Virus genome (UHGV): UHGV-0115695
Direction: 5' to 3' (one strand)
DNA length: 42,066 nt
From: a virus
The notes under the pieces: model-generated
The model's database searches: none
What the model saw: the letters and a program-made list of their open reading frames with translations, nothing else
Told to the model about the DNA's origin: nothing
Position numbers and translations under genes: made by a program
Shown here: positions 16,226-32,541 of the stretch, piece by piece
How the letters are laid out: each line of letters starts with the position of its first letter
Position numbering within the stretch: position 1 is the first letter of the stretch

Positions 16226-16265
16226 TCATGCCGTTAATATGTTGCCATCCGTGGCAATCATGCTG

Positions 16266-17433: not shown

Positions 17434-17708
17434 TGGACAAACACCCTCCCATTGTTAACCAATTTTTTAAGGGTAAGCACAATGGCCCGATCCATTTCAG
17501 CCCTTCGCTCTTCCCTGCTCATATCTCTTCCATTATCAATTCTTGAATGACAATCAACACATAGCGCAGCAGTAAGGCAATCATCTACTTTAATCCCAAC
17601 CCCCTTCCCTTCATTTCTGTGAGCGGCCTGAACTCCGTATCTTCCGCAAAGAACGCAAAATTCAATATCCCTGACTGCCTGAAGCCATTTTTTGCTTCTA
17701 AACATCAA
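17430..17708 (-). CDS. Nin-region Cys-rich protein, DUF1364/YbcO-like
   Basis: 92 aa; CVLCGRYGVQAAHRNEGKGVGIKVDDCLTAALCVDCH spacing resembles recalled YbcO family; weak. Confidence 0.55.
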   Translation of the reverse strand: MMFRSKKWLQAVRDIEFCVLCGRYGVQAAHRNEGKGVGIKVDDCLTAALCVDCHSRIDNGRDMSREERRAEMDRAIVLTLKKLVNNGRVFVQ

Positions 17709-18207
17709 TCCCCTCCAAAAAACGTCGGTACGCTGATTTGTTTTTTATGTTGCACACTGTCTGCGCACAAACACCAAATTCTTTGGCTATATCTCTGTAT
17801 TTGCCTTTTGATTTATATATTGATTTCACTTGTTCTGGCGTTAGTTTGCAGAAGTGATGATTAAAACCATGAACAAGCAACCCGGAATCAAATCCATGTT
17901 TCGCATTTTCTGTTCGCGTTACCCACTCAAGATTTTCAACTTTATTATTAAGTTTATTTCCATCCTTATGATTAACTTCCGGTTTTCCATCTGGGTTATC
18001 AATAAATACTTCTGCAACAATTCTGTGAACCATTTTATATGATGGTCTTTTCCCGCCACCTGGATACAGACCGACAAATGCATATCCTCCTGGTTTAATA
18101 CCATGAGATAATTTTTTTGATTTACGGCATGAAATGATGTCTCCATTTTCAGTTACTTTATATATACCCTCAAAGCCGGGGATATCTTTTTCTTTTACAT
18201 CACTCAT
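17698..18207 (-). CDS. Freestanding HNH homing endonuclease (NUMOD4-like N-terminus, HNH core, C-terminal HTH)
   Basis: IPGFEGIYKVTENGDI (NUMOD4-like), VNHKDGNKLNNKVENLEWVTRTENAKHG (HNH), AT-rich; inserted within nin region. Confidence 0.85.
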   Translation of the reverse strand: MSDVKEKDIPGFEGIYKVTENGDIISCRKSKKLSHGIKPGGYAFVGLYPGGGKRPSYKMVHRIVAEVFIDNPDGKPEVNHKDGNKLNNKVENLEWVTRTENAKHGFDSGLLVHGFNHHFCKLTPEQVKSIYKSKGKYRDIAKEFGVCAQTVCNIKNKSAYRRFLEGIDV

Positions 18208-18394
18208 CGTCTTCTTCCTCGTACATTGAGCTATTCGGATCGCTCATCAGCTCTGCGCAGCAGTGCTCACACACGTGAACTTCCAGAAAATGCAGCTTTT
18301 GACCGCAATTAGCGCACGTTAAAGCTCGCTCGACGCTTTGTTGTTCGTAACTTCGATTTGGGTCAATCACCTTGTTTTCCTCATGCGGTTCCAT
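18200..18394 (-). CDS. ninF: NinF-like protein (internal start of the 153-aa track ORF)
   Basis: C-terminal 64 aa ...SVERALTCANCGQKLHFLEVHVCEHCCAELMSDPNSSMYEEEDDE closely matches recalled lambda NinF. Confidence 0.75.
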   Translation of the reverse strand: MEPHEENKVIDPNRSYEQQSVERALTCANCGQKLHFLEVHVCEHCCAELMSDPNSSMYEEEDDE

Positions 18395-18509
18395 TTGGCC
18401 TGTAACAGCCCGTAGACATAATCGAATGTCTTTACCTGGCTTTCTGTGGGGATTGGTTTCTTGCGGGATTTGGTGCGTTTGGTAGGAGTAAAAATCAGGT
18501 TGTCTAACG

Positions 18510-18683
18510 CTATTTGAGTAATACTTCGTCGCTGTCTCGCCACACGTCCTCCTTTTCCTGCGGTAGTGGTAAAACTCCTGTTGGTGTTCTTTCACACCGG
18601 AGACACCATCGATTCCAGTAAGGTTGATTTGGTCGGAAGCGGTTATCTTCTTTGCATTCACCGCACCGATAACATCGCATCAT
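18510..18683 (-). CDS. Small Cys-rich nin-region protein (NinD/NinE-like zinc ribbon), start overlapping ninB stop (ATGA)
   Basis: 57 aa from [16 protein letters not shown]...; two CxxC pairs; translational coupling with ninB. Confidence 0.5.
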
Positions 18684-19120
18684 GCAGCCCGATCTCCCCA
18701 TCGCGCTTTCCATTCGAGAGCCAGTCGCGCTTCGTCTGACCACTTAACGCCACGCTCTGTACCGAATGCCTGTATAAGCTCTAATAGCTCCGCAAATTCG
18801 CTTACACGCATCCTGCTGGTTGACTGGCCTATTACCACAAAGCCATTCCCGGCAAGGTTAGGAACAACGTCCTGCTGCTTTAATGCTGCGGTAAACACAC
18901 ACTTCCAGCTTTCTGCATCCAGCCAGCGACCATGCCATTCAACCTGACGCGAAACGTCACCAAGGCAAGCCCAAAGCTTCCGATTTTGGTCTAAGCTGCG
19001 GTTGCGCTCCTGAATGGTTACTACGATTGGCTTGGTTGGGTCTGGAAGGATTTGCTGGATGGCTTGAATGGCGTTCTGCTGATGGATGGGGCTTCTTAGT
19101 TCAAACGTTAGTTTCCTCAT
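18680..19120 (-). CDS. ninB: NinB (Orf) recombination mediator
   Basis: 146 aa, the same length as lambda NinB as I recall it, with matching sequence. Confidence 0.85.
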
Positions 19121-19337
19121 GGGATGAACTCCAGTGTGCGATGTTAAATTCCCATTTAATTACCTTTGCATACCCAATTTTGAACCCATCAATACCTATC
19201 CACCGCTTGCCACTCCAATAAGCTGTACCACTATGCTTGAAATGATGTGGATGCTTAGATTGAGTGGTCACTGTTACAGGTAAATATGGCTTCGGGTATT
19301 CCCCATTCCCTGGATAACCAGATTTAATTCTGCTCAT
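19101..19337 (-). CDS. Hypothetical nin-region protein
   Basis: 78 aa ORF packed between ninB and upstream gene; no family recognised. Confidence 0.4.
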   Translation of the reverse strand: MSRIKSGYPGNGEYPKPYLPVTVTTQSKHPHHFKHSGTAYWSGKRWIGIDGFKIGYAKVIKWEFNIAHWSSSHEETNV

Positions 19338-19660
19338 TGATACCCTCGCTCACTTAATCGCCTCCACGCTTCGTTAAACTCTTCTCGGGTTGCGCCGGAT
19401 TTTCTTTCTTCAAACATCATGCATTCGCTGATGTCTCCCCATGACTTTGTTCGCTTTTCAGCGAACAGATCATCCCATTCGAATACCCAGCGGCCTGATT
19501 TTCGGTAGTGGTAAATGGTCAGCCATGTTGTGCTGTTCGCTGGATACCCATAGAGAACTTCGACTTTTTGATCACGGTCTTTATGCTTTTTCAGCAGGAT
19601 AAAGCCAGCAACCAGCGAAGCTCCGGCAAGAATGATGATTGGAATTTGCCAGTCAGCCAC
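19334..19660 (-). CDS. Hypothetical small membrane protein
   Basis: 108 aa; N-terminal hydrophobic helix IPIIILAGASLVAGFILL; no family recognised. Confidence 0.45.
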   Translation of the reverse strand: MADWQIPIIILAGASLVAGFILLKKHKDRDQKVEVLYGYPANSTTWLTIYHYRKSGRWVFEWDDLFAEKRTKSWGDISECMMFEERKSGATREEFNEAWRRLSERGYQ

Positions 19661-19732
19661 ACTTCCCTCTCCCCCAAATAAAAAGACCTGCGATTACCAG
19701 CAGGCCTGTTATTAGCTCGGTGATGTAGATGG

Positions 19733-21109
19733 TCATACGTCAGCCCCTTGTGCATATCGCCTGCCACGTGCAGCGGGTGCATTTGATGCTGTGCAAATCT
19801 GTCTGGCTTCATCCTGGTCACATGCAACAAAGTGTCCGTTGCAGAACCGCTGGTAAACCGTACCAAGCGAGCCAAAACGGTTTTTCGTCACGATGATTTC
19901 AGCAAATGGCGCGGCGCTACTGTTCTCGTCATATACCGCTTCCCTATAGAGCATGATGATTGAGTCTGCGTCCTGTTCAATGCTTCCTGAATCACGCAAA
20001 TCTGCGTTTGTCGGGCGTTTGTTTGGTCGCTTCTCAACATCGCGCGAAAGCTGACTTAGGGAGATAACAGGCGTTTTCAGGTCTTTCGCCATCGCCTTAA
20101 GGCTTCCTGAGATGTGAGCAATTGCGAGGTCGTTGCGGTCTGCTTTCGGCTTCTCAATCAGGCCAAGATAATCCACCATGATGAGTGACAGGTTTGGATT
20201 TTCCTGTTTGTGCCGTTCTGCGATTGAGCGTATTTCTTCGACCGATAACCGCGAGGCATCGACTACCCATACATCCAAATCTGCAAGCTGACTCATGCCG
20301 TTAGCAACACGCGCCCAGCCTTCGTCATCCATCGATGCAGGATTTCGCAGTACGCTAACCGACATCCTCCCGGCGTTGGCAATGCTTCGCTCTGCAATCT
20401 GCAATGCGCTCATTTCCATTGAGAAAATCAATACCCCGCGCCGGACGTCAGAACCAGGAATAACGCGGCTTGCAACGCCTTCGGCAATCTTCAGCGCCAG
20501 TTCGGTTTTCCCCATACCAGGACGAGCAGCGATTATCACCAGGTCTTCCGCGTTCATCCCTCCGGTGATGGCATCAAGTTCTTCGATTCCGGTCTTCAGG
20601 GTATCGGACTCTTCTCCGTTCCTCAGACGCCTGTCAAGCGTGTCAGTGTAGTCAGTAATGATTTCCCCTAACCGTACAGGTTTAACCTCGTCACGGGGCT
20701 TTCTGATGGCCGAAAGACGCTTTACAAGTTCATCCATCGCCTGACTCGATGCGTCGATGGTTCCGCTCTGAATTGGTTCACGCATTTCATCCATGATTTC
20801 CAGCACCAGACGGCGGTGATAGTTATCCGCGACCATTCCGGCATATCCCTTCAGGTTTGCGGCACTCGGGCAGTTTTTGCTGGTCATCAGGATTGACGTG
20901 AAATGCTCCTCTCCGCACGCCTCGGCAACCATCAGCGCGTCGATTAGGTTTCTGTTTCGCGCCTGCTTGCGGATAACCTCGAAGGCTTTCCGGTAGAGCG
21001 GAATTGAAAACGCTTCCGGCTCCAGCGTTGCCAGAACGTCGCTGGCGGTTGGTGTTAATCCACCAATCAGCAAGCCACCGATAACGCTCGCTTCGATATC
21101 CTGTCTCAT
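19733..21109 (-). CDS. 12: Replicative DNA helicase, DnaB family (P22 gp12 homologue)
   Basis: 458 aa; Walker [17 protein letters not shown]; DnaB-like N-terminal and C-terminal RecA-fold regions. Confidence 0.9.
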
Positions 21110-22053
21110 GCAATCCCCCTGTCTGCAAACTTCCCTTCCCGTACTCCAGTTAACGAATCTTCTCTCAGCAAGTAATCAAAATCTGCCGTCCAGCCAGTGT
21201 CGTTGTCTCCGAAGTAAAACGGCTTGGCCTGATGCACAAACGCCCTGACATACGCTCTGAAACCGTCCACGTTTGGCGTTTTCAGTTGCGGGATGATTTT
21301 CTTCAGGCGGCGTTTGCGTTTCTCGTTGACCGCAACAGCGTGTGGCAGTCTGTCACCGACTTCGGTGTTGTAGGCGTTCAGGAAGGATTCGTAGTCGATT
21401 CGTTCTGCCTTGCGACGTTCAGGTTTAACCTGCCCATCGCCTCCCACGTTAGGGGGTAAGGGGGTATTATTTATATTCTTGTTAATACCTTCTTGTTCAT
21501 GATGTGCGGTTGTTTGTGCGGCTTCATGTGCGCTTTCATGTGCGGCATGTACGCTGAAAGCCGCGCCATTACTGGCTTCATCATGTGCGGCATCATGTGC
21601 GGTTGTTTGTGCGGCTTCATGTGCGGGTGAGTTGTCCATTTTTTGAGCGTATTCATGGTAATTTGTGATGGTGATCACACGACCTTTTTTCTTCTCTCCA
21701 TCAATGGAGATCATCCCCTCTTTCACAAAAACCTGAAGCATCCTCTCAACCTGATCACGGCTTGCTGGCTTGCCATGTCTGTCGCATAACTGAAGACCTA
21801 AATCAGCTGCTGTCACAACCAGTTGACCGGGTTGCAGATGCCATTCATGACCTTTGAAATTCGCTTTGTATGGCTTTCTGGCGGCATTCAGGAGAAGGTT
21901 TTCCCACAGGGTGCGAAGATAAACATCTTTCGCCCATGACTGTTTCAGAATGCTCCGGTACAACGGAATGTAACCAGTTTTCTGGTTCTCCATCCTGTTG
22001 CTCCTGCGCTCGTGTGCGGCGCTGAAATCGTAGATTTTTGCTGTATTGCTCAT
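21106..22053 (-). CDS. Replication initiator, lambda O-like (P22 gp18-like), with origin iterons inside the gene
   Basis: 315 aa; internal His/Ala-rich repeats (HEAAQTTAH) encoded by DNA iterons; precedes helicase gene with overlapping stop/start. Confidence 0.8.
21455..21650. repeat. Replication origin: array of CATGTGCGG-type iterons followed by AT-rich segment
   Basis: Repeated ..atgtgcgg.. units between 21480 and 21650 and adjacent tattatttatattcttgttaat AT-rich stretch at 21455-21480, inside the O-like gene as in lambda ori. Confidence 0.75.
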
Positions 22054-22055
22054 AA

Positions 22056-22328
22056 CTACCTGCCTTGACGAAAGACCTTAAGAACATCGTTAAACTGACT
22101 TACGGATATGTCTTCTTTGAGAAGCTTTTCCAGAAATGCGTTTGGAATGAACGTATATCCCTCCTCTTTTGGTAGAGACGGGAGCAACGCCCTCGCCTCA
22201 GCCTTCAGAAGCTCAGTTCTGGCAACTTTCACAAAAGAGATTTGAGTTCTTTCATCAATGGAACGAAGGAAGCGCAAACGCTTAGCTTCTTTGTGTGTAT
22301 CAGGTGGATTAAAGCCTTTGTTTCGCAT
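22056..22328 (-). CDS. Hypothetical protein between cII and the initiator gene (internal start of 193-aa track ORF)
   Basis: 90 aa from MRNKGFNPPDTHKEAKRLRFL...; GAGGT RBS upstream; no family recognised. Confidence 0.5.
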   Translation of the reverse strand: MRNKGFNPPDTHKEAKRLRFLRSIDERTQISFVKVARTELLKAEARALLPSLPKEEGYTFIPNAFLEKLLKEDISVSQFNDVLKVFRQGR

Positions 22329-22350
22329 ATAATTACCTCGTTGGATGTTG

Positions 22351-22644
22351 TTAAAATTCCATTTGTATTTGATCAGAACGCTCGGTTGCCGCCGGGCGTT
22401 TTTTATTGGTGAGAATCGAAGCAACTTGTCGTGCCAATCGAGCCATGTCGTCGTCGACAACACCCCATTCAAGAACAGCAAGCAGCATTGAGAACTTTGG
22501 AATCCAGTCCCTCTTCCACCTGCTGATCTGCGACTTATCAACTCCCACAGCTTCCGCTGTCTTCTCAGTTCCAAGCATTGCGATTTTGTTAAGCAACGCA
22601 CTCTCGATTCGTAGAGCCTCGTTGCGTTTGTTTGCACGAACCAT
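22351..22644 (-). CDS. cII: Transcriptional activator CII (lambda type)
   Basis: 97 aa from MVRANKRNEALRIESALLNKIAMLGTEKTAEAVGVDKSQISRWKRDWIPKF..., matching recalled lambda CII. Confidence 0.9.
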   Translation of the reverse strand: MVRANKRNEALRIESALLNKIAMLGTEKTAEAVGVDKSQISRWKRDWIPKFSMLLAVLEWGVVDDDMARLARQVASILTNKKRPAATERSDQIQMEF

Positions 22645-22703
22645 ATGTAAGTATTTCCTTAACAAATAAGAAGTTATGCGCATCAACTTATGCGCGTTGT
22701 ATT

Positions 22704-22745
22704 CCCGCATTTCGGCGGGAATGAGTACCATGACTGTTAAAGAGC
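22704..22745 (-). promoter_or_regulatory. nutR: boxA (GCTCTTTAACA) and boxB hairpin
   Basis: Minus strand boxA at 22745-22735 and boxB CCCGCCGAAATGCGGG at 22719-22704; identical boxA/boxB pair recurs at nutL. Confidence 0.75.
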
Positions 22746-22752
22746 AATTTGC

Positions 22753-22938
22753 TTATGCCGCTTTGCGGTAAGCGCTTTCTTGATACTTCAGGGCGCCAGC
22801 TGTAACGACTTCCAGTCGATAGGCGTCTTTCTCTGGGATGACTTCCTTCCACTGAGAGACTGCTGCGTCGCTAATGCCTAACGCTTTAGCTACAGCACGC
22901 TGGGTTCCGAAGTGGTCGATAACATCTTTCTTGTACAT
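22753..22938 (-). CDS. cro: Cro repressor (P22 type)
   Basis: 61 aa MYKKDVIDHFGTQRAVAKALGISDAAVSQWKEVIPEKDAYRLE... matches recalled P22 Cro. Confidence 0.95.
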   Translation of the reverse strand: MYKKDVIDHFGTQRAVAKALGISDAAVSQWKEVIPEKDAYRLEVVTAGALKYQESAYRKAA

Positions 22939-22949
22939 AGACTCGCTCC

Positions 22950-23018
22950 GAAATTAAAGAACACTTAAATTATCCACTAAAGGAATCTTAAGTCAAGTTT
23001 ATTTAAGATGTCTTAACT
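22950..23018. promoter_or_regulatory. OR region: three 18-bp P22-type operators with divergent PR and PRM
   Basis: ATTAAAGAACACTTAAAT (22953-22970), ACTAAAGGAATCTTAAGT (22977-22994), ATTTAAGATGTCTTAACT (23001-23018), each with dyad half-sites and 6-bp spacing. Confidence 0.8.
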
Positions 23019-23669
23019 ATGAAAACTCAATTGATGGGAGAGCGCATTCGCGCTCGGAGAAAAGAACTCAAGATCAGGCAGGCCGCACTTGGAAAGATGG
23101 TCGGCGTGTCTAATGTTGCCATATCTCAGTGGGAACGCTCTGAGACAGAGCCAAATGGAGAGAATCTTCTCGCCCTGGCTAATGCGTTGAAGTGTTCCCC
23201 TGACTATCTGATGAAAGGAGAGGAAAGTCTTTCAAACATTGCCTATCACAGTAGGCATGATCCAAGAGGGTCATACCCTCTGATTAGCTGGGTGAGCGCA
23301 GGATGCTGGATGGAAGCTGTAGAACCATATCATAAGCGTGCAATAGATAACTGGTACGATACAACCGTAGACTGTTCAGAAGATTCGTTTTGGTTGGACG
23401 TGAAGGGAGACTCAATGACGGCTCCGGCCGGTCTCAGTATCCCTGAAGGAATGATAATACTCGTCGATCCTGAAGTAGAGCCGCGTAACGGGAAACTGGT
23501 AGTTGCAAAGCTCGAAGGAGAAAACGAGGCAACTTTCAAGAAGTTAGTTATTGATGCAGGCAGGAAGTTTCTAAAACCACTTAACCCACAATATCCGATG
23601 ATCGAGATCAACGGAAACTGCAAAATCATCGGCGTAGTTGTCGATGCAAAACTAGCAAACCTTCCATAA
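23019..23669 (+). CDS. c2: Prophage repressor C2 (P22 type, LexA-like cleavable)
   Basis: 216 aa; matches recalled P22 C2 including HTH QAALGKMVGVSNVAISQWERS and C-terminal peptidase fold region. Confidence 0.95.
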   Translation: MKTQLMGERIRARRKELKIRQAALGKMVGVSNVAISQWERSETEPNGENLLALANALKCSPDYLMKGEESLSNIAYHSRHDPRGSYPLISWVSAGCWMEAVEPYHKRAIDNWYDTTVDCSEDSFWLDVKGDSMTAPAGLSIPEGMIILVDPEVEPRNGKLVVAKLEGENEATFKKLVIDAGRKFLKPLNPQYPMIEINGNCKIIGVVVDAKLANLP

Positions 23670-23692
23670 GGGGGCATTCGCCCCTTTTTTTA
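23669..23692 (+). terminator. Rho-independent terminator after c2
   Basis: GGGGC-ATTC-GCCCC followed by TTTTTTT directly after the c2 stop. Confidence 0.75.
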
Positions 23693-23699
23693 TTTCCTT

Positions 23700-23790
23700 T
23701 AAAAATCAAAGCCAAACTTAAGTTACGAAAGAAAATTTAAGTTTTCTTCAAAAATACTCTTGACCATTAATTAAAGAGATCTTAAATTTA
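23700..23790 (+). promoter_or_regulatory. OL operators and PL promoter
   Basis: TTGACC (23760-23765) and TAAATT (23783-23788) with 17-bp spacing; operator ATTAAAGAGATCTTAAAT (23769-23786) overlapping; further half-site-like repeats upstream. Confidence 0.7.
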
Positions 23791-23833
23791 AGCCATCAGC
23801 AGGACGCGGAAGCCAAACGGAACAGATTGGCAG

Positions 23834-23873
23834 GCTCTTTAACATTGATGGGATTGTCCCGCCGAAATGCGGG
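23834..23873 (+). promoter_or_regulatory. nutL: boxA (GCTCTTTAACA) and boxB hairpin
   Basis: Same boxA and boxB (CCCGCCGAAATGCGGG) as nutR, downstream of PL and upstream of the N-like gene. Confidence 0.75.
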
Positions 23874-24141
23874 AACCAAAGAGTAGTTGGCTTTGGGGTG
23901 TGGTGAAGCCAGCTAGTCACTGGCAAGTGCTTACCTACTGTTGAGCGGTGAAGCGCTCCCAACGCTAGCAATAGCGTGGACGAGATGGGGAGCCGCGGGC
24001 GATAAGGCCGCCATAACGCGCACGTTGTCGCATGGAAAAATCGCTGGGGTGCCGGTTATACCCCTCCGAATGAGACTCAACAAGCTGGAGCTAGACTACC
24101 AGCCACCACACCACCAAAGCTAATCATCTGAGGAACAGAAA

Positions 24142-24261
24142 ATGTTAGACATCATGACCAACCCAATTCTCGGTGGTTTAGTTACCACATTCGCCATCTG
24201 CTTCGGTTTCACTATCTGGTCTGAAGTAGATGACTGGATGTGGGAACGCAAAAACAAATAA
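24142..24261 (+). CDS. Small hydrophobic peptide (39 aa) between nutL and N
   Basis: ATG preceded by GAGGAA; MLDIMTNPILGGLVTTFAICFGFTIWSEVDDWMWERKNK has one predicted TM helix; below the track length cut-off. Confidence 0.4.
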   Translation: MLDIMTNPILGGLVTTFAICFGFTIWSEVDDWMWERKNK

Positions 24262-24301
24262 TCATCGACACACAAGGATGTGCACCTACCCGGAGGTCAA
24301 C

Positions 24302-24601
24302 ATGACAGTAGTCATTACATATCTGGCTGACGATAACGCCAGAAATCGCCGCAGAGCACGCAGACAGGCTCAACGTGAACAGGCAATGCAAGAGCAGCGA
24401 CTGGCGCGAAAAATTGAGCTAAAGCTCTCTGGTTGCGTCAGAGCAGATAAAGCAGCATCACTCGGAAGCCTTCGCTGCAAGAAGGCAGAAGAAGTCGAGC
24501 GTAAACAGAACCGTATTTACTACCGCAAGCCACGCAGTGAAATGGGTGTGACTTGTGTTGGTCGCCAGAAAATGAAATTAGGCAGCAAACCACTTATTTG
24601 A
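24302..24601 (+). CDS. N-like transcription antiterminator (arginine-rich motif)
   Basis: 99 aa from MTVVITYLADDNARNRRRARRQAQREQ; arginine-rich motif at N-terminus; first gene of the PL operon downstream of nutL. Confidence 0.65.
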   Translation: MTVVITYLADDNARNRRRARRQAQREQAMQEQRLARKIELKLSGCVRADKAASLGSLRCKKAEEVERKQNRIYYRKPRSEMGVTCVGRQKMKLGSKPLI

Positions 24602-24609
24602 GGTGATAT

Positions 24610-24933
24610 ATGGAAGCATTAGTAGTAGAGCGAAGCGAGGATGGCTACTGGACGCACCCAGAATACGCCAACCTGTTTGGGGATAGAGAGGTAATTTCAG
24701 CTGATGAGTTCAGATCTTTCTGCAAGCAGCATGGCATTGAATCATCAATTGTTGAAATGGAAAACGACAACAATCAAACGGTAATTGACTCGTATTTTGA
24801 AGATGGGAATCCAAACATCAGTGGATGGGAGCCAAGCATGCCAGATGGAGAAGGATGGTTTGTTGGTTCGATTCACGATACAGAAGACGGTCCGATCTGC
24901 GTTTGGTTCAGGAATGTAGATAAGGCCGCATAG
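24610..24933 (+). CDS. Strongly acidic hypothetical protein (first gene after N)
   Basis: 107 aa; roughly 23 Asp/Glu against about 6 Lys/Arg by my count; terminator overlaps its stop. Confidence 0.6.
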   Translation: MEALVVERSEDGYWTHPEYANLFGDREVISADEFRSFCKQHGIESSIVEMENDNNQTVIDSYFEDGNPNISGWEPSMPDGEGWFVGSIHDTEDGPICVWFRNVDKAA

Positions 24934-24948
24934 TCGGCCTTTATTTTT
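24923..24948 (+). terminator. Rho-independent terminator (tL1-like)
   Basis: AGGCCG-CATAGT-CGGCCT followed by TTATTTTT. Confidence 0.7.
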
Positions 24949-24970
24949 GGCATAAACAACAGAGGTGAAT

Positions 24971-25105
24971 ATGAACGCAGTTGAATTTACAAAATGGATG
25001 GCAGAGCAAGATATCACAGGATCCGACGAAAAGGCTGTGTACTACATGGCTCTGCTATGGATTCACAAAGCAAAAGAGGCTGCAAATGCTCTTGGAGGTG
25101 AGTGA
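24971..25105 (+). CDS. Small hypothetical protein (44 aa)
   Basis: AGAGGTG RBS then ATG; stop overlaps next start; no family recognised. Confidence 0.35.
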   Translation: MNAVEFTKWMAEQDITGSDEKAVYYMALLWIHKAKEAANALGGE

Positions 25106-25305
25106 TGTGCGAGTTTTATGAAGCAGATATCAAACGCCCAGAAATGGCAAGTGATGCAACATTACGTGATTACTTCGCGGCAAAGGCTATGCAAGCAATG
25201 ATTAGCAATCCATCGATTATCGATAATGATTCTGATGGAGCTGTTAATTATGCAGCAAGCGCTGCATATAAGTTTGCAGACGCAATGCTCAAAGCTCGCG
25301 AATAA
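25105..25305 (+). CDS. Small hypothetical protein (66 aa)
   Basis: Translationally coupled to the preceding small ORF; no family recognised. Confidence 0.4.
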   Translation: MCEFYEADIKRPEMASDATLRDYFAAKAMQAMISNPSIIDNDSDGAVNYAASAAYKFADAMLKARE

Positions 25306-25400
25306 GCACTGTGTATTCATTCCAACGAGTGAATACACGGAGCAATGTCGCTCGTAACTAAACAGGAGCCGACTTGTTCTGATTATTGGAAATCTTCTTT

Positions 25401-25428
25401 GCCCTCCAGTGTGAGGGCAATTTTTTTG
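25401..25428 (+). terminator. Rho-independent terminator
   Basis: GCCCTC-CAGTGT-GAGGGC followed by AATTTTTTT; lies inside the N-terminal extension of the 324-aa track ORF, which argues for the later start. Confidence 0.65.
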
Positions 25429-25439
25429 ACGGAGGATAT

Positions 25440-26360
25440 ATGAGTGAAGTAACAGATTTAGTTGTTATTGAAAAAGCAAATGCAATGACTGTATTTCAGT
25501 CTGCCGACCAGATTGAAGAAATCCTTCAAAAGGTTGAACGTGAAGTTATGTCCTTTGTGCCTGATATCACAACGGCAAAGGGCAGAAAGGAGATCGCTTC
25601 TCTGGCGTATAAAGTTGCGCAGACGAAAACATATCTCGATGGTCTTGGCAAAGACCTTGTTGCTGAACTGAAGGAAATTCCAAAGCTAATTGATGCTAAC
25701 CGCAAGACAGTGCGCGATCGCCTTGATGAACTGAAAGCCAAGGCGCGCCAGCCTCTTACTGATTATGAGGAAGAACAGGCGCGGATTAAAGCCGAAGAAG
25801 AAGCTAAGGCAGCAGCTGAAGCTCTCGCAAAGCAAATTGAGTCTGACCATGAAATAGCGATTTTGATGGATCGCGAATTTGACCGCCAAAGAGAAGAGGC
25901 AAGACTCAAAGCTGAGCAGGAAAAGCGAGAGCATGAAGAACGCTTAAAAAGAGAAGCTGAAGAGAAAGCCAGAGCTGAAGCCGAAGCAAAGGCAAAAGCC
26001 GAAATTGAAGCAGCAGCAAGGCGAGAAGCAGAAGCTAAGGCCGCAGCGGAACGTGCAGAGCGTGAACGCATTGAAGCCGAGCAACGAGCACAGCGCGAAG
26101 CAAAAGAGGCAGCAGAACGAGCTGAAAGAGAAAAGCATGCGGCAATTGAAGCAGAACGCCGTAAAGCACAGGAGGAGGCAGAACGAATCCGGCGCGAGGC
26201 TGAAGCAAAAGAGCAAGCCAGAATAGCAGAAGAAAAAAGAATCAAGGACGAAGAAGAGCGTAGAGCAAAGGATAAAGCTCACCGGAAAGAAGTAAATAAC
26301 AAAATACTTGCTGACCTTATCAAGGTTGGCGCATCGAAGATGTTGCTAAAAATATCATAA
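25440..26360 (+). CDS. Hypothetical protein with a structured N-terminal region and a long E/A/K/R-rich coiled-coil
   Basis: 306 aa from MSEVTDLVVIEKANAM... (GGAGG RBS 5 nt upstream); residues ~110-290 are low-complexity charged heptads; upstream of the recombination module. Confidence 0.6.
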   Translation: MSEVTDLVVIEKANAMTVFQSADQIEEILQKVEREVMSFVPDITTAKGRKEIASLAYKVAQTKTYLDGLGKDLVAELKEIPKLIDANRKTVRDRLDELKAKARQPLTDYEEEQARIKAEEEAKAAAEALAKQIESDHEIAILMDREFDRQREEARLKAEQEKREHEERLKREAEEKARAEAEAKAKAEIEAAARREAEAKAAAERAERERIEAEQRAQREAKEAAERAEREKHAAIEAERRKAQEEAERIRREAEAKEQARIAEEKRIKDEEERRAKDKAHRKEVNNKILADLIKVGASKMLLKIS

Positions 26361-26431
26361 CAGCCATCGTAAAAGGCGAAGTATTCGCAACAAAAATAAC
26401 CTACTAATAAAACCAACATAAGGAACCACCC

Positions 26432-26563
26432 ATGATTTACGCAATCGCGGGAGGCGCTCGCATGGGTGCCTTCCAATTAAATGAATCTTTACTTGAACGA
26501 ATCACCCGTAAATTACGTGACGGATGGAAAAGATTTGAGGTCTTATTATGCGCAATGAAATAG
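26432..26563 (+). CDS. Small hypothetical protein (43 aa)
   Basis: AGGAACC RBS then ATG; overlaps next small ORF. Confidence 0.3.
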   Translation: MIYAIAGGARMGAFQLNESLLERITRKLRDGWKRFEVLLCAMK

Positions 26564-26700
26564 CCATCAATCACCAGATGCTTCGTGCTGCACAGAACAA
26601 AGCAGTAATAGCCAGATTTATTGGTGATTCAAAAATGTGGCTTGAAGCAAATAAAGCGATGAAATCAGCTATCAATCTTCCGTGGTATCGCAGGAAATGA
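26548..26700 (+). CDS. Small hypothetical protein (50 aa)
   Basis: Overlapping coupled small ORF; no family recognised. Confidence 0.3.
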   Translation: MRNEIAINHQMLRAAQNKAVIARFIGDSKMWLEANKAMKSAINLPWYRRK

Positions 26701-26867
26701 GTTTTACAGATAACTGGTCAGACGAAGAATTCATTCGTCAGATGAAAGAATTAATCGGTAACGAAGGAGATATTCATGTCACTTGCAACCACAGTGAAGG
26801 AGAGCAAGTTACAGAGACGCATGTACACGCAGCAGGCGTTAATGTATCGCCAGAAGGGAGATCGTGA
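26697..26867 (+). CDS. Small hypothetical protein (56 aa)
   Basis: ATGA start/stop overlap with the preceding ORF; acidic. Confidence 0.35.
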   Translation: MSFTDNWSDEEFIRQMKELIGNEGDIHVTCNHSEGEQVTETHVHAAGVNVSPEGRS

Positions 26868-26954
26868 AGGTGTTCGCGTATTTTTAAATGCGGCAAAGAC
26901 TGAAGTATTAAATCAGCGTTATTTCCTTGGGCCATGTCCATTCTGAGGTGAATT

Positions 26955-27662
26955 ATGGATTTGAATAAATTCGATGAGCCATTCAGCCCTGAAGATATCG
27001 AATGGCGAATACAGCAAAGCGGTAAAACACGCGATGGCAAAGTGTGGGCTATGGTGCTGGCTTATGTCACGAACCGGGCAATCATGAAACGCCTGGACGA
27101 TGTTTGCGGCAAAGCAGGATGGCGCAATGAATACCGCGATATTCCCAACAACGGCGGCGTTGAATGCGGCATATCGATAAAGATTGATTCCGAATGGGTA
27201 ACCAAATGGGATGCTGCTGAAAACACGCAGGTAGAAGCCGTCAAAGGTGGTCGTTCCGGTGCAATGAAGCGCGCTGCCGTTCAGTGGGGAATCGGTAGGT
27301 ATCTGTATAACCTTGAGGAAGGTTTCGCACAAACATCTCTCGATAAAAAGCAGGGGTGGCACAGGGCAAAACTGAAGGATGGAACAGGATTTTACTGGCT
27401 CCCTCCATCACTTCCGGGATGGGCAATCCCAGCATCAGATAACAAACCATCACCAGAAAATACCAACCAGAAATCTCCATCGGTTGACTGCGAACAAATC
27501 CTGAAAGACTTCAGCGATTATGCAGCGACAGAAACTGACAAGAAAAAACTCATCGAGCGTTATCAGCGTGACTGGCAATTAATGGCTGGCAACGAGGAGG
27601 CGCAGGCTAAATGCGTTCAGGTAATGAACATCAGAGTTAACGAACTAAAACAGGCGGCATAA
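26955..27662 (+). CDS. Single-strand annealing protein, Rad52/Sak-like (recalled family; unverified)
   Basis: 235 aa; ...AMKRAAVQWGIGRYLYNL... resembles the conserved motif of phage Rad52-like annealases; immediately followed by SSB and an exonuclease. Confidence 0.55.
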   Translation: MDLNKFDEPFSPEDIEWRIQQSGKTRDGKVWAMVLAYVTNRAIMKRLDDVCGKAGWRNEYRDIPNNGGVECGISIKIDSEWVTKWDAAENTQVEAVKGGRSGAMKRAAVQWGIGRYLYNLEEGFAQTSLDKKQGWHRAKLKDGTGFYWLPPSLPGWAIPASDNKPSPENTNQKSPSVDCEQILKDFSDYAATETDKKKLIERYQRDWQLMAGNEEAQAKCVQVMNIRVNELKQAA

Positions 27663-28178
27663 ATGGCAAGCAGAGGCGTAAATAAGGTGATCATTATTGG
27701 TCGCCTTGGGCATGATCCAGAAATCAGATATTCACCATCAGGAACGGCATTTGCAAACCTTACAGTTGCTACGTCAGAACAATGGCGTGATAAGCAAACT
27801 GGAGAGCAAAAGGAGCAGACGGAGTGGCACCGTGTGGTAATGAGCGGGAAACTGGCAGAAATTGCCAGCGAATATCTGCGAAAAGGCTCTGAGGTTTATC
27901 TTGAAGGCAAATTGCGGACAAGAAAATGGCAGGATCAAAGCGGACAGGATAGGTTCACTACCGAAGTCATCGTGGGCGTTGGTGGAACCATGCAAATGCT
28001 TGGTGGCAAGCAAGGAGGCAATGAACAGTCTTCACCTCAGCGAAATAACGGTCAGCAACAAAAACAGCAGCCTCAGCAGCAAGGGAATCACAGCGAACCA
28101 CCTATGGATTTTGACGACGATATCCCCTTTGCACCAGTAACTCTCCCTTTCCCTCGTCACGCTATTCACGCAATTTAA
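27663..28178 (+). CDS. ssb: Single-stranded DNA-binding protein
   Basis: 171 aa; OB-fold N-terminal region ([18 protein letters not shown]), Gln/Gly-rich linker, acidic tail DFDDDIPF. Confidence 0.9.
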
Positions 28179-28198
28179 GGACTTACATGAATCACTAG

Positions 28199-28735
28199 AT
28201 GGTTGACCTTGAAACAATGGGCAACGGGCCATACGCGCCAGTTATTTCTATTGGGGCGGTATTCTTTGACCCGAATATCGGAGAAACAGGAGAAGAGTTC
28301 TCGGTAAATATCTCACTTGAGTCATCAATGCGATATCGAGCGCGTCCTGACGCTTCAACGATTTTATGGTGGATGGAACAGAGTGAAGAAGCCAGAAAAT
28401 CGCTAACCAGCAACACTCAGGAGCTTTCAACGGCTCTTTCATGGTTATCTGAATTCATCATAAAGAACGCTAACCACAAATTCGTTCAGGTTTGGGGGAA
28501 TGGAGCATCATTTGACTGCGTTATTCTCCGAAACAGTTATTCGCTGACAGGGCAGCCAGTTCCATGGCAGTGGTGGAATGACCGCGACGTAAGAACAATC
28601 GTCGAGCTTGGAAAGGTAATAGGATTCGACCCTAAGCGAGATATGCCATTCAAAGGAACTCGCCACAACGCTCTTGATGATGCCATTCACCAAGCCAAAT
28701 ACGTTTCAGCGATCTGGAAAAAGTTAGCTAAATAA
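28199..28735 (+). CDS. DEDDh-family 3'-5' exonuclease
   Basis: Exo motifs DLETMG, FDCVIL and HNALDDA in the right order and spacing; 178 aa. Confidence 0.7.
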   Translation: MVDLETMGNGPYAPVISIGAVFFDPNIGETGEEFSVNISLESSMRYRARPDASTILWWMEQSEEARKSLTSNTQELSTALSWLSEFIIKNANHKFVQVWGNGASFDCVILRNSYSLTGQPVPWQWWNDRDVRTIVELGKVIGFDPKRDMPFKGTRHNALDDAIHQAKYVSAIWKKLAK

Positions 28736-28751
28736 TCAACAGGAGAAAACC

Positions 28752-29045
28752 ATGCCAGCGCCTCAGTATGGTGCGGATGACCCGCGCCGCTGTTCCGGCA
28801 ATTCCGTATCGGAGGTGCTGGATAAATTCAGAAAAAACTACGACCTGATAATGTCGCTACCACAGGAAACGAAAGAGGAAAAGGAATTTCGCCACTGTAT
28901 ATGGCTTGCAGAGAAAGAAGAACGCGAGCGAATTTACCAGACATCAATCCGACCATTCCGCAAAGCCACATATACCCACTTCCCTGAAATTGACCCGCGC
29001 CTGCGTAATTACCGCTCACGCTATGGCGCTATCAGTAATGACTGA
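28752..29045 (+). CDS. Hypothetical protein
   Basis: 97 aa ORF in operon context; no family recognised. Confidence 0.45.
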
Positions 29046-29056
29046 GGAATTTACCA

Positions 29057-29224
29057 TGAGAGGACTTGCATACAATCCCGGCATTCTTCCGGCAGAAATG
29101 ATTATTCGCCAACGCGTAAAGCCAATGCCATCGAGAGAGGAATTGCTTAAGAGAAATTCTTTTCCATCAGTGAATCAAAACAAATATCTGAATGCGATGT
29201 GGCGCAAAGGAGGCAAGCAGTGAG
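29057..29224 (+). CDS. Small hypothetical protein (55 aa)
   Basis: GAGGAA RBS then ATG; fills the gap between neighbouring genes. Confidence 0.35.
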
Positions 29225-29519
29225 TGTATATCTTATTGATAAACGTCGACGTGGGCAACAAATACCACCTGTAGGAATTCCGAATCACACATGGTTTTGC
29301 GTACTTGATATCGATGGTATGGATGCGTTGGTTGACACTCGTCATTACTGCGATACCGCAACAGCTACTCCGGCGAAAGCAAAGAAAATGGCTGCTCTGA
29401 TAGAAAACTGGACTCCACCTGATGGTTGGTGCAATGGGAATGATCGAGATTGGCATGAAAAAATGAAGGGCTATATCTGCGATTTCTTACGTAAATGCAA
29501 CGGATTCAGGGTGATGTGA
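29221..29519 (+). CDS. Hypothetical Cys-containing protein (GTG start after AGGAGG)
   Basis: 99 aa from [12 protein letters not shown]...; strong RBS; no family recognised. Confidence 0.45.
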
Positions 29520-29520
29520 C

Positions 29521-30207
29521 ATGAACAAGATTGACTATCAGGCACTGCGTGAAGCGGCAGAGAAAGCCGGTGAAGATAAGTGGCAGGCTAAAAAAATAAA
29601 TGGTGATTTTTTCGTTATTCGTCACGGTAGTTATACAAGACAGCATGGCTACACATCGTATCAACCCATTGCGGAGATTGATTGTAAGCCAGTCCGGGAT
29701 TTTGTTTCCAAGGCTAATCCGGCTACCGTGCTGGAATTACTGGATGAACTGGAAGCAGCAAAAAAGCGCATTGCAGAACTGGAAGCCGAACCCGTAAGCC
29801 AAACTTACAACTTGCCAGAATTAATCGAAGGGATGGAAGTTTCCATTGATGTAAGCACTTGTGATGCTGATTTAGGTAATCGCTATTTCGGTACCGTCAC
29901 CGAGGCGTTAGAACTTGATACTGCCAAGAATGGTTACATCCTCCTGGTTCAGGACGCAGAGCCAAACTTCGATGTAAATGGCAACTCTCCGGTAACTCCG
30001 GATGGTTGGATAAGCTGTAGTGAGCGAATGCCGAAAGAAACGGGTGACATTATTGTTGTTTCGGATGGCATTGTAATGTCCGGGATTTCTTATTCTCGTC
30101 GTGACGGGTTCTATATAGCCGCATTGGAGTACGACGACGATGAGCCAATTGGCGGTGTAACCCACTGGATGCCTCTACCAGAACCGCCTCGATTAAAGGA
30201 GCTATAA
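29521..30207 (+). CDS. Ead/Ea22-like protein with C-terminal DUF551-like region
   Basis: 228 aa; N-terminus MNKIDYQALREAAEKA... and coiled coil LELLDELEAAKKRIAELEAE typical of the Ead/Ea22 family of lambdoid accessory proteins. Confidence 0.6.
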   Translation: MNKIDYQALREAAEKAGEDKWQAKKINGDFFVIRHGSYTRQHGYTSYQPIAEIDCKPVRDFVSKANPATVLELLDELEAAKKRIAELEAEPVSQTYNLPELIEGMEVSIDVSTCDADLGNRYFGTVTEALELDTAKNGYILLVQDAEPNFDVNGNSPVTPDGWISCSERMPKETGDIIVVSDGIVMSGISYSRRDGFYIAALEYDDDEPIGGVTHWMPLPEPPRLKEL

Positions 30208-30321
30208 TAGTGAACTATTATATCTATTTGTATTAAAAGAGTTTTTATAAAATAAATCTTCCAAAGCATGTAAAAACACTGTTAATCTTAACGTGTGTGA
30301 AACGTGAAGAGAGGTGTTGAA

Positions 30322-30603
30322 ATGAGCATTCATGATTTGTGTGAAGATCAAGAGCAATGGGCTATGCAGACCCTTATGGGATCAGGAGTTCTTGCAAGGT
30401 GCAGAATCCATAACGATGTAATTTTAGACAGCGGAAATGATGCTTCTTCTGCTTATAAATTAGGAACTTACCTATATCAAAAAGATAATAGCTGCAACTT
30501 ATTCAATACTCTTACTGAAGCCCGCGACGCAATAAAGGATGCATATGAATCGTATTGTGGGATAGATGATTGCCCACAATGCTCAAAATACATTGACGAT
30601 TAA
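30322..30603 (+). CDS. Hypothetical Cys-rich protein, moron-like (own AT-rich upstream region, two terminators downstream)
   Basis: 93 aa from MSIHDLCEDQEQW...; preceded by ~110 bp AT-rich segment; followed by tandem terminators. Confidence 0.5.
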   Translation: MSIHDLCEDQEQWAMQTLMGSGVLARCRIHNDVILDSGNDASSAYKLGTYLYQKDNSCNLFNTLTEARDAIKDAYESYCGIDDCPQCSKYIDD

Positions 30604-30621
30604 TAATATGAACAAGTAACT

Positions 30622-30645
30622 ATCCTCGCACTCGCGGGGATTTCT
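30622..30645 (+). terminator. Rho-independent terminator
   Basis: TCCTCGC-ACTC-GCGGGGA (one G-U pair) followed by TTTCTTTT. Confidence 0.6.
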
Positions 30646-30653
30646 TTTATCTG

Positions 30654-30678
30654 AACTCGCTACGGCGAGTTTTGTTTT
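30654..30678 (+). terminator. Rho-independent terminator
   Basis: AACTCGC-TACG-GCGAGTT followed by TTGTTTT. Confidence 0.7.
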
Positions 30679-30691
30679 ATGGAGATGATAA

Positions 30692-30859
30692 ATGCACTTC
30701 CGAGTCACAGGTGAATGGAATGGAGAGCCATTCAACAGAGTTATCGAAGCGGAGAACATCAACGACTGCTACGACCACTGGATGATATGGGCGCAGATAG
30801 CACATGCAGACGTAACCAATATTCGAATTGAAGAACTGAAAGAACACCAAGCCGTCTGA
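30692..30859 (+). CDS. Small hypothetical protein (55 aa)
   Basis: GGAGATGATAA then ATG; MHFRVTGEWNGEPFNRVIEAENINDCYDHWMIWAQIAHADVTNIRIEELKEHQAV. Confidence 0.4.
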   Translation: MHFRVTGEWNGEPFNRVIEAENINDCYDHWMIWAQIAHADVTNIRIEELKEHQAV

Positions 30860-30916
30860 TGGCGGTTTTTTATTGCCTGATTTGCAGGTTCGATTCCCTA
30901 TTCGGAGATAGCACTC

Positions 30917-31117
30917 ATGCAACACGAACTACAACCTGATTCACTGGTTGATTTGAAATTCATCATGGCTGATACTGGCTTCGGTAAAACCTTCATCTAT
31001 GACCGGATTAAGTCCGGCGACCTGCCAAAAGCCAAAGTTATCCACGGACGAGCAAGATGGTTATATCGTGACCATTGTGAATTCAAAAATAAGCTCTTAA
31101 GCCGCGCTAATGGGTAA
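30917..31117 (+). CDS. AlpA-family excisionase / transcriptional regulator (xis-like)
   Basis: 66 aa; HTH FIMADTGFGKTFIYDRIKSGDLPKAKV; directly upstream of and co-oriented with the integrase. Confidence 0.8.
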   Translation: MQHELQPDSLVDLKFIMADTGFGKTFIYDRIKSGDLPKAKVIHGRARWLYRDHCEFKNKLLSRANG

Positions 31118-31365
31118 AATAGCGGGTAAAATATTTTTCACATCTAAAAAATACCATTCCAATCAATCCCCTGCTGCCTCAAGTAGATGTCTGCAGGGGA
31201 CACCATGAACACTTCTCACTAAGTCCAATTAATTCCATAACTCACTGTTTTAACTGATATCATCTCCTTATACTCGTCCAGCAAAGTACCATTATTTCTA
31301 ATGGAATCTATACATCTTTGCGTATAACATTGTGTATAACTGAGTTCGATCTTTTTTCTATACAC

Positions 31366-32541
31366 ATGCTGCTATCTGACATCCAAATAAAAAGAGCAAA
31401 ACCGAAGGACAAACCCTATACGCTTAACGATGGTATGGGGCTATCACTCCTGATCGACACAGCGGGCAGTAAAGGCTGGCGTTTTCGCTATCGCTTTGCA
31501 GGTAAGCCTAAGATGATTTCCTTTGGCGTATATGGCGATGTGTCGTTGGCACAGGCACGTACCAAACGTGATGAAGCGCGTTCGATGTTAGCCAAAGGGA
31601 TAAACCCAAGTGAAGCCAGAAAAGCAGATAAGATTGCTTTGCAGTTCGCGCATGAGAACAGCTTTGAGTCTGTGGCCAGAGAATGGCACTCATCGAAAAA
31701 AGCCACCTGGTCAGAGGGTTATGCAAAAGAGGTTCTCAATTGTATGGAAAAGGATATTTTTCCTTTTATCGGCCAGCGCCCAATTGAGCAGATTGAACCA
31801 TTAGAACTGCTAACCGTCCTGCAAAAAATAGAGAAAAGAGGTGCGCTAGAGCAAACCAGTAAGATCCGCCGCCGCTGTGGTGAAGTGCTTCGTTATGCTG
31901 TTGCCACTGGTAGAGCAAAGTATAATTTTGCACCCGATTTAGCTATCGCACTCAACAAACCTAAAACCCAACACTTCCCGTTCCTGACTGAAAGCGAGTT
32001 GCCCGAGTTCGTTAATGCTCTGGATAACTATCAGGGCAGTTTAGTTACCAAATACGCCACGCAGCTGTTGATGCTAACAGGCGTGCGAACAATTGAACTA
32101 CGTGCAGCGGAATGGGCTGAGTTTGATTTAGATAATGCCTTATGGGAGATCCCCAAAGAACGGATGAAGAAACGCCGCCCCCATCTGGTTCCGTTATCAA
32201 CTCAGGCGATCAATATCCTGAAAAAGCTGCAAGAAATAACAGGGAATTACAGCCTCGTTTTCCCTGGCCGAAATGACGTCAGGAAACCAATGAGCGAAGC
32301 CAGCATCAACAAAGTGATAAAACTACTGGGTTATCACGGTCGGTTAACGGGTCACGGTTTCAGGCATACCATGAGCACCATCTTGCATGAGCATGGGTTT
32401 GAAAGTGCCTGGATTGAAATGCAGCTTGCGCATGTTGATAAGAACTCTATTCGAGGTACTTACAATCATGCGCAATATATTAAAGATCGACAAGTAATGA
32501 TGGAATGGTACGCTAGCTTATTAAATACGACCTGCTATTAA
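31366..32541 (+). CDS. int: Tyrosine integrase, P4-family (arm-type N-terminal DNA-binding domain)
   Basis: N-terminus IKRAKPKDKPYTLNDGMGLSLLIDTAGSKGWRFRYRFAGKPK typical of P4/CP4-57-type integrases; C-terminal catalytic region with R...HGFRHT...Y; ATG at 31366 preferred over the upstream TTG. Confidence 0.9.
   Translation: MLLSDIQIKRAKPKDKPYTLNDGMGLSLLIDTAGSKGWRFRYRFAGKPKMISFGVYGDVSLAQARTKRDEARSMLAKGINPSEARKADKIALQFAHENSFESVAREWHSSKKATWSEGYAKEVLNCMEKDIFPFIGQRPIEQIEPLELLTVLQKIEKRGALEQTSKIRRRCGEVLRYAVATGRAKYNFAPDLAIALNKPKTQHFPFLTESELPEFVNALDNYQGSLVTKYATQLLMLTGVRTIELRAAEWAEFDLDNALWEIPKERMKKRRPHLVPLSTQAINILKKLQEITGNYSLVFPGRNDVRKPMSEASINKVIKLLGYHGRLTGHGFRHTMSTILHEHGFESAWIEMQLAHVDKNSIRGTYNHAQYIKDRQVMMEWYASLLNTTCY

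Follow-up and report, generated by a model that had tools for sequence, protein, structure and literature searches.

The adjacent excisionase and integrase genes of the 42,066-nt stretch of UHGV virus genome UHGV-0115695 (the window) most probably belong to two independent elements lying in tandem at the tRNA gene argW. In this reading, to which we give a probability of roughly 85%, torI is owned by a prophage and the integrase by a P4-like satellite, and the T-arm-like box upstream of torI is not a crossover site and would be a putative TorI operator. The assignment of torI to the prophage and of the integrase at 31366–32541 to the satellite can be made, on sequence grounds, with high confidence. 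Coordinates of the features discussed are collected in Table 1.

Table 1. Features of the window, with positions, strands and the basis of each assignment
Feature	Position	Strand	Basis or remarks
Right-hand ~31 kb of an HK620/Sf6/CUS-3-type prophage (P22-like, Lederbergvirus)	1..31206		End of phage homology; layout of Ecol_276
Terminator-like hairpin and T run	30849..30871	+	Directly upstream of torI module
TTGC-N5-TTGC	30873..30885	+	cII site / P_I-type integration promoter in HK620 and Sf6 records
16-mer box TTGCAGGTTCGATTCC	30882..30897	+	Conserved kernel CAGGTTCGATTCC, 30885–30897
Second pentamer ATTCG	30900..30904	+	12 nt after first pentamer; abuts Shine-Dalgarno GGAG (30905–30908)
torI, prophage recombination directionality factor (excisionase), 66 aa	30917..31117	+	PDB 1Z4H, RefSeq, phrog_66
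Two direct repeats GGGTAAAA	31112–31119 and 31124–31131	+	At torI stop codon
TCCCCTGC	31167..31174	+	Inverted copy of the core's left part (GCAGGGGA, 31193–31200)
Shared att core CTGCAGGGGACACCAT	31191..31206	+	Last 15 nt of argW plus 1
Integrase-proximal satellite arm	31207..31365	+	Repeats GCGTATAAC (31320–31328), GTGTATAAC (31332–31340), TTCTATACA (31356–31364)
Satellite integrase, 391 aa	31366..32541	+	Arm-DNA-bind_3, Phage_int_M and Phage_integrase
Low-GC cargo, sce7725 family	32521–33471	−	Between int and ogr/delta
Low-GC cargo, sce7726 family	33493–34374	−	Between int and ogr/delta
Ogr/Delta zinc finger	35055–35327	−	PF04606
Zn-ribbon/Toprim/DUF927 primase	35610–38297	−	PF08273, PF13362 and PF06048
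Ash-family protein	38930–39520	−	
P2-family major capsid homologue	39608–40612	−	PF05125, 1e-66
AlpA-family regulator/excisionase	41513–41740	−	PF05930, 5e-20, 71.5 bits

The boundaries of the two elements were located by comparing a 2.1-kb query across the junction region with a phage collection and with E. coli genomes. Homology to phages (HK620, Sf6, Kapi1, N7, phiv205-1 and others) stopped at query position 607, corresponding to window position 31206, and in many E. coli strains the 100% match began no earlier than query position 592 (window position 31191), with a tRNA-Arg annotated at the beginning of these satellite-side matches. The 16-nt overlap of both homologies is an exact match to CTGCAGGGGACACCAT, a sequence which is at once the 3′ end of argW (by sequence comparison), the attP core annotated in the HK620 record and the published 16-nt duplicated core of the K-12 prophage KplE1 (PMC2951348). 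As the homology breakpoints fall at both edges of this core, an att core sits between excisionase and integrase, within the 248-nt gap separating the two genes, and this one copy does double duty, as attR core for the prophage and as attL core for the satellite. The inverted partial copy of the core found shortly upstream, TCCCCTGC, covaries with it in other hosts. No second core copy, which would represent the satellite attR, was found within the window at up to two mismatches; in the genome Ecol_276 the satellite attR lies ~ 120 nt past a (GGGCT)n array, and it is at that array that the window ends.

At the junction Ecol_276 and the window are 99% identical, and this genome displays the full layout. 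Its left part reads yfdC, argW, intS and tailspike through to torI, core, integrase, sce7725 and sce7726; its right part continues with ogr/delta and primase through to Ash, P2-type capsid, a hypothetical gene and an AlpA-type HTH gene, the last being followed at the right end by (GGGCT)n, ATTCCTGCAGGGGACACCAT and dsdC. Each of the two elements was also found alone at argW. The satellite occupies this site by itself in strain D6 (yfdC, argW, integrase, sce7725, sce7726, ogr/delta, DUF927 primase), where the spacer between argW and the integrase is identical to window positions 31207–31365, and the phage does so in NU14. Comparison with genomes carrying only one of the elements, a check recommended in the initial annotation, thus brackets the core at 31191–31206. 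The exact tandem junction was carried by 13 of 5426 complete E. coli genomes, and an IMG/VR contig of another TorI lineage (L135) has the same satellite-type integrase after its torI core.

The initial annotation had considered the ownership of the excisionase-integrase pair ambiguous and, by synteny, had placed both genes as one module at the end of the prophage PL operon. Adjacency of the two genes on the same strand and in the customary xis-int order would indeed be expected of a single cassette belonging to one element, whether prophage or satellite. Such a cassette is, however, scarcely credible given that the att core lies between the two genes with homology breakpoints exactly at its edges, that each gene is found without the other in many genomes, that IntS is located at the far, opposite end of the prophage in Ecol_276 and that the satellite has an AlpA of its own. 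The question of ownership is settled by the ends of homology at 31206 and 31191, and the alternative that had been entertained, an integrase of the P4-like satellite type, proved correct, the gene being the satellite's and not the prophage's. It had also been pointed out that the integrase 3′ end runs into a low-GC cassette and leaves no room for an att site downstream. The overlap is real (the convergent ORF 32521–33471 shares the final 21 nt of the integrase) and no att site lies downstream, for the reason that the att site of this integrase lies upstream, at 31191–31206, where it had been overlooked.

Late genes of the prophage are on the − strand and its PL operon is on the + strand. Judging from Ecol_276, the left end of the prophage (argW, attL, intS, tailspike) is located ~ 8.6 kb beyond the window start; there IntS, a protein of 385 aa encoded outside the window in our case, adjoins argW at the opposite prophage end. 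TorI was aligned to PDB entry 1Z4H, 'Tor inhibition protein', over residues 1–66 of 66 (E = 6.6e-43), and RefSeq matches annotate the gene as torI. The description of this excisionase as AlpA-type holds loosely, by virtue of the broad family phrog_66 ('excisionase and transcriptional regulator'), but not by Pfam, since the score against AlpA (PF05930) was 12.7 bits (E = 0.12), below the gathering cut-off of 21 bits.

In the KplE1/HK620/Sf6 module the integrase and the excision factor finish at opposite prophage ends (PMC2951348, PMC3509656). IntS and TorI lie on opposite sides of attP and hence at opposite ends of the prophage, which makes torI the last prophage gene; it is followed by the P arm and then by the 16-nt core. 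The two direct GGGTAAAA repeats of this arm, kept in all lineages compared, are putative IntS arm-type sites. IntS arm sites contain a TAAA motif (PMC2951348), and TAAA-containing repeats are present in the torI-side arm of the window, as in the KplE1/HK620 module. An equivalent of the terminator-like hairpin precedes the torI module in every upstream context seen, and a consensus promoter scan of 30600–31420 found no promoter.

The satellite integrase carries the domains PF13356, PF22022 and PF00589 and is 45% identical to the prophage IntS. Its start is most likely the ATG at 31366, as annotated by RefSeq; the ORF list gives a longer, TTG-start ORF from 31318. It is the first gene of the satellite and directly follows argW in D6. 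The two elements differ in their arm repeats, the phage P arm having two copies of GGGTAAAA and the satellite having GCGTATAAC, GTGTATAAC and TTCTATACA; in Ecol_276, GTGTATAAC and TGTATAGAA reappear in the far arm of the satellite. The satellite is flanked by ATTCCTGCAGGGGACACCAT, 20 nt of the tRNA 3′ end repeated in direct orientation. GC content drops to 0.31–0.36 across 33001–35000, and the region of the capsid homologue also encodes a 286-aa protein without a family match. No match to Sid or Psu was found among the satellite proteins in general family searches of the Pfam/PHROG type. A further sequence near the satellite integrase, GTTCGATC (31344–31351, 22 nt before the start codon), was set aside, since it is unconserved in the satellite of L135 and chance alone would give such a density of pentamers.

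The tandem arrangement suggests two routes of excision. In one, recombination by IntS, TorI and IHF between the argW core and 31191–31206 would release the phage and leave a D6-type argW-satellite configuration. In the other, 31191–31206 would be joined to the satellite attR by the satellite integrase, presumably aided by its AlpA, with an NU14-type phage left beside dsdC. Of the 20 nt of repeat shared with the satellite attR, only 16 are left in the attL of the hybrid junction, which may impair excision of the satellite on its own. As to the order of arrival, the satellite would have come first, followed by the phage, which would have entered the intact argW regenerated at the satellite's left end; this order is the more economical one, as in the reverse order the satellite would have had to use an incomplete site. 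Dependence on a P2-like helper phage and a cos site are among the hallmarks of P4-like satellites; the neighbouring P22-like prophage would not be expected to be that helper.

The T-arm-like 11-mer just upstream of the excisionase, GGTTCGATTCC, is present once in the window (30887–30897, + strand), and the open reading frames of the excisionase (30917–31117) and the integrase (31366–32541) were likewise as initially described. The 11-mer extends to a 16-mer, TTGCAGGTTCGATTCC (30882–30897), 16/16 identical to the T arm of E. coli argW, tRNA-Arg(CCU), which is thus its host tRNA counterpart. The 16-mer was never reproduced in shuffled sequences, even at two mismatches. A near-match elsewhere, GGTTCGATTCA (24865–24875), was set aside because one-mismatch matches are expected by chance (0.61 expected). 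The statement that no intact tRNA surrounds the 11-mer was borne out by ARAGORN, which found no tRNA in the window, and by Rfam, which found none in 30500–31500 even at E ≤ 10. In the comparison with argW, the 3′ end of this gene is matched by the core; the 11-mer corresponds to the T arm and not to the crossover.

Sharing a single C, the 16-mer and the core of E. coli jointly make up the last 31 nt of argW. In the window these two halves of the argW end are split by a 293-nt torI segment, the core sitting 294 nt to the right of the 16-mer. Insertion of the excisionase gene into a split tRNA 3′ end was considered and rejected: other genera already have a degenerate second copy of the T loop (aTTCGATGT) right next to the core, so that the box does not represent the lost half of a divided tRNA end, and the box can moreover be duplicated in tandem. 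A T-arm RNA hairpin in the torI leader was set aside as well, since a T stem can be paired only in some lineages (Edwardsiella, Serratia) and E. coli allows no more than 3 bp.

Conservation of the box was assessed in TorI loci gathered from 24 species genomes and IMG/VR; in the latter, a TorI alignment query returned E. coli-type loci only, and divergent loci were obtained via divergent single-protein queries. The kernel CAGGTTCGATTCC was kept in ~ 11 different upstream contexts, originating from Escherichia, Enterobacter, Citrobacter, Serratia, Pantoea, Edwardsiella and uncultured IMG/VR phages, and the box was absent from ~ 10 more divergent TorI lineages. On average, pairs of lineages were 90% identical in the box 12-mer, compared to 59% at torI third codon positions and 33–40% in the 12 nt on each flank of the box. 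In five lineages (L135, L136, L138, L132 and L017) the box is duplicated in tandem with a 14–16-nt period. Judged by this level of conservation, the box is under purifying selection.

The kernel, which includes the 11-mer, contains the TorI-site pentamer GTTCG (30888–30892) and lies ~ 30 nt before the torI start codon. Mutation of GTTCG, GATCG and GTCCG at five attL sites has been reported to abolish TorI action (Panis et al., PMC2951348). The occurrence of this pentamer in a conserved, sometimes duplicated box in front of torI makes the box a putative TorI operator, and we hold with moderate confidence that it may control torI expression. Many lineages have a further pentamer 12 nt downstream of the first, adjoining the ribosome-binding site, with GTTCG or GTCCG in the place of the E. 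coli ATTCG. Across 54 distinct upstream regions the pentamers GTTCG, GTCCG and GATCG amounted to 42 occurrences on the + strand and none on the − strand, which is ~ 10 times the background; the lineages compared are related, so these counts do not represent independent events. The P′ arms of HK620, Sf6, L133 and L143 carry these pentamers as well, in the same orientation. Some points speak against an operator, besides the TorI lineages without the box. The conserved unit of 12–13 nt is longer than the TorI pentamer, which is all that the known attL sites have in common with the box, and ATTCG, the second E. coli pentamer, was not among the mutated attL variants.

A bolder version of the operator reading can be put forward tentatively, the odds being against it: the box may be a high-affinity operator through which TorI-family proteins regulate their own expression by means of a tRNA mimic, and the T arm in attL and attB may be bound too. 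In this version the TorI recognition pentamer GTTCG is the T-loop sequence itself, the T arm in attL/attB lies exactly three helical turns (31 nt) from site I1, and the host tRNA gene would supply part of an excision or integration-blocking complex.

One competitor of the operator reading is the suggestion, made in the initial annotation, that the 11-mer is what remains of a tRNA-derived att core, with the 16-mer as a leftover, devoid of function, from an older or alternative core. Its perfect identity to the argW T arm, and the fact that 16-mer and core together spell the last 31 nt of argW around the torI segment, are what such a relic would leave. The GenBank record of CUS-3 points in the same direction, labelling TTGCAGGTTCGATTCC as the attL and attR core and terminating exactly at the 16-mer. 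This record, however, is simply incomplete. Its last 1032 nt are 100% identical to NU14, the sequence of which runs on into torI and the real core and then dsdC, and its left end is an ordinary argW/core/IntS-arm junction; CUS-3 is also listed among the phages with a conserved IntS-TorI module (Panis et al., PMC2951348). Together these three results show that the label is wrong, that the CUS-3 record is ~ 310 bp short and that the 16-mer is not the crossover site. Furthermore, a 135-bp attR fragment which begins at the torI 3′ end, and hence lacks the box, suffices for excision in vitro (PMC3509656), and the degenerate T-loop copy abuts the core in other genera. With the working core located 294 nt to the right, and the box conserved far above neutral sites and its own flanks and even duplicated in some lineages, we regard a relic as improbable.

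Two other functions of the box were weighed against TorI binding. In the records of HK620 and Sf6 the region is annotated as a cII-activated promoter of the lambda P_I type, of which the box would be the spacer, its conservation being due to the function of the promoter; transcription would start past the torI ribosome-binding site and read via attP into int, yielding integrase without excisionase at lysogenisation. Apart from these annotations and the TTGC-N5-TTGC at 30873–30885, this is favoured by the position of lambda P_I (TTGCGTGTAATTGC) at the equivalent place, right after the same terminator-like hairpin, and by an Arsenophonus lineage (L028) that has a near-lambda box in place of the T-arm box. 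Yet the spacing is N5 as opposed to N6 in lambda and in the P_RE of this phage (22622–22635), N5 matches are frequent by chance (8 found, 3.4 expected), the TTGC repeats are lost outside the E. coli group while the box is kept, promoter spacers are not normally conserved, and the consensus scan of 30600–31420 found no promoter. On balance we consider it unlikely that the box is such a spacer. A promoter of this type would be compatible with TorI binding there as a repressor. A further, improbable reading makes the box an imitation of the tRNA part of attB, recognised by the catalytic, core-binding domain of IntS; control of torI would then fall to the integrase and not to TorI. The entire 13-nt kernel is tRNA sequence that flanks the core in attB, and binding by this domain is possible precisely because the conserved unit exceeds the TorI pentamer; moreover, IntS represses its own promoter at attL (PMC2951348). 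Against this, the second sites 12 nt downstream match the TorI-type pentamer only, with none of the T-arm sequence, and in E. coli the phage's own sequence beside the core (GTAGATGT) has diverged, a sign that the T loop is dispensable for IntS.

Compared with known systems, the prophage side conforms to the KplE1 (CPS-53)/HK620/Sf6/CUS-3 module in its TorI (matching 1Z4H over the full 66 residues), its core CTGCAGGGGACACCAT, the GGGTAAAA repeats at the torI stop codon and the order of genes, with torI last in the prophage and intS first, beside argW, in the 99% identical genome. The T-arm box is found upstream of torI in K-12 KplE1 as well. Differences from this module are that attR abuts a satellite here and not dsdC, and that the prophage body is mosaic, with a lambda-like orf55 and terminator and a lambda-type P_RE. 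Similarly to the lambda xis/P_I region, orf55 and a terminator-like hairpin lie upstream and a regulatory box is placed between the hairpin and the xis start codon. Lambda, however, has TTGC-N6-TTGC and keeps xis and the int that immediately follows it on one side of attP; in the window the box consists of a T-arm copy, and xis and int are parted by attP.

The satellite side follows the P4-like plan of tRNA, integrase, low-GC cargo, ogr/delta, Zn-ribbon/Toprim primase, Ash and, at the far end, AlpA. The position next to the integrase is reportedly a defence hotspot in P4-like satellites. This satellite is characterised by its target, argW, and by an integrase 45% identical to IntS, and it departs from classical P4 in its DUF927 primase and P2-family capsid homologue, with Sid and Psu not detected.

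P4 Vis and P2 Cox are excision factors that also act as transcription regulators. TorI, for its part, acts as a regulator at the intS promoter (PMC2951348). The pentamer arrays beside the torI start codon, with their 12–16-nt spacing, resemble sites I3–I5 next to the −35 element of that promoter; they are unlike them in that the box copies the T arm of the target tRNA and that TorI binding here is putative.

The junction as such combines two kinds of element that are already known, an IntS-TorI module that has been characterised experimentally and a P4-like satellite residing in a tRNA gene, and is therefore ordinary and accounted for. What is possibly new is confined to the selected T-arm copy in front of torI: a full-text literature search for the 16-mer, the 13-mer and the 11-mer returned no phage paper, although the copy may have been described before.

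For annotation, the consequence is a correction: the excisionase and the neighbouring integrase come from different elements, with an att site between them. The T-arm repeat can mislead tools that predict prophage boundaries, and has misled at least one GenBank record, that of CUS-3. The tandem itself is a neat natural example of two related integrases (45% identical) that share one tRNA core but differ in their arm sites, which makes integrase cross-talk and the order of excision directly testable. Finally, the T-arm copy offers a small, testable hypothesis on how expression of the excision factor may be controlled in a well-studied module.

In the deposited record of phage CUS-3 (CP000711.1), the two sequences annotated as 'attL core' and 'attR core' (positions 1-16 and 40192-40207) were found to be the 16-mer identical to the argW T arm, which lies upstream of the excision factor gene torI, and not the KplE1/HK620 core. 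The last 1032 nt of CUS-3 were identical to the prophage of NU14, a strain carrying only the phage at argW, where the sequence then runs on into torI and the core. The CUS-3 prophage as deposited thus stops ~ 310 bp early, with torI and the true attR missing from the record.

Several features of the prophage were of lambda type (see table). The motif TTGCGTTTGTTTGC, identical to the cII-binding box of lambda P_RE, marks the lysogeny switch as lambda-type, against a virion background that is P22-like. Additionally, the 55-aa ORF displayed 95-97% identity to lambda, Stx phages and CUS-3, as did the terminator-like hairpin, and the mosaic joint with the integration module lies at about 30872-30885.

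Features of the prophage, the shared att core and the P4-like satellite
Feature	Coordinates	Strand	Remarks
TTGCGTTTGTTTGC	22622-22635	+	Inside cII/cro region, strand facing repressor gene
55-aa ORF	30692-30859		Before torI module
Terminator-like hairpin	30849-30871		Before torI module
Inverted copy of left part of core	31167-31174 vs 31193-31200		TCCCCTGC / GCAGGGGA
sce7725 and sce7726 family genes	32521-34374	-	Low GC (0.31-0.36)
P2-family major capsid homologue	39608-40612	-	Full-length; PF05125, 1e-66; phrog_70
286-aa protein	40635-41495	-	Adjoins capsid homologue
Perfect (GGGCT)n microsatellite	42014-42061		Near satellite attR

P4-like elements carry defence cargo between int and ogr/delta, and the sce7725/sce7726 pair of the satellite occupies the same position; only sce7726 matched a PADLOC model (candidate model 'cll', 1e-18), and the pair was assigned to none of the known defence systems. 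Where P4 has sid and psu, the satellite has the capsid homologue and the adjoining 286-aa protein, for which no match was seen in Pfam or PHROG. This gene content suggests a different route to building or resizing capsids. The microsatellite, spanned by a 44-aa ORF called by RefSeq, comprised 9.6 copies here versus about 20 or more in the 99% identical E. coli genome Ecol_276 (locus L006, about 12230-12335), and the array is thus length-variable between near-identical elements.

In almost every lineage compared, the inverted copy was located to the left of the core at a distance of 13-17 nt, and both varied together where the host tRNA differs (CCCCTACA/TGTAGGGG and TCCCTGCATA/TATGCAGGGA). It could represent an extra core-type site for the integrase, or a hairpin. 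Across eight loci from other genera, the torI core often directly preceded either a further integrase of a different type or, in a separate TorI lineage (L135), the same satellite type as found here. Occupation of argW in tandem, with a second element following a TorI phage, is therefore a recurrent arrangement.
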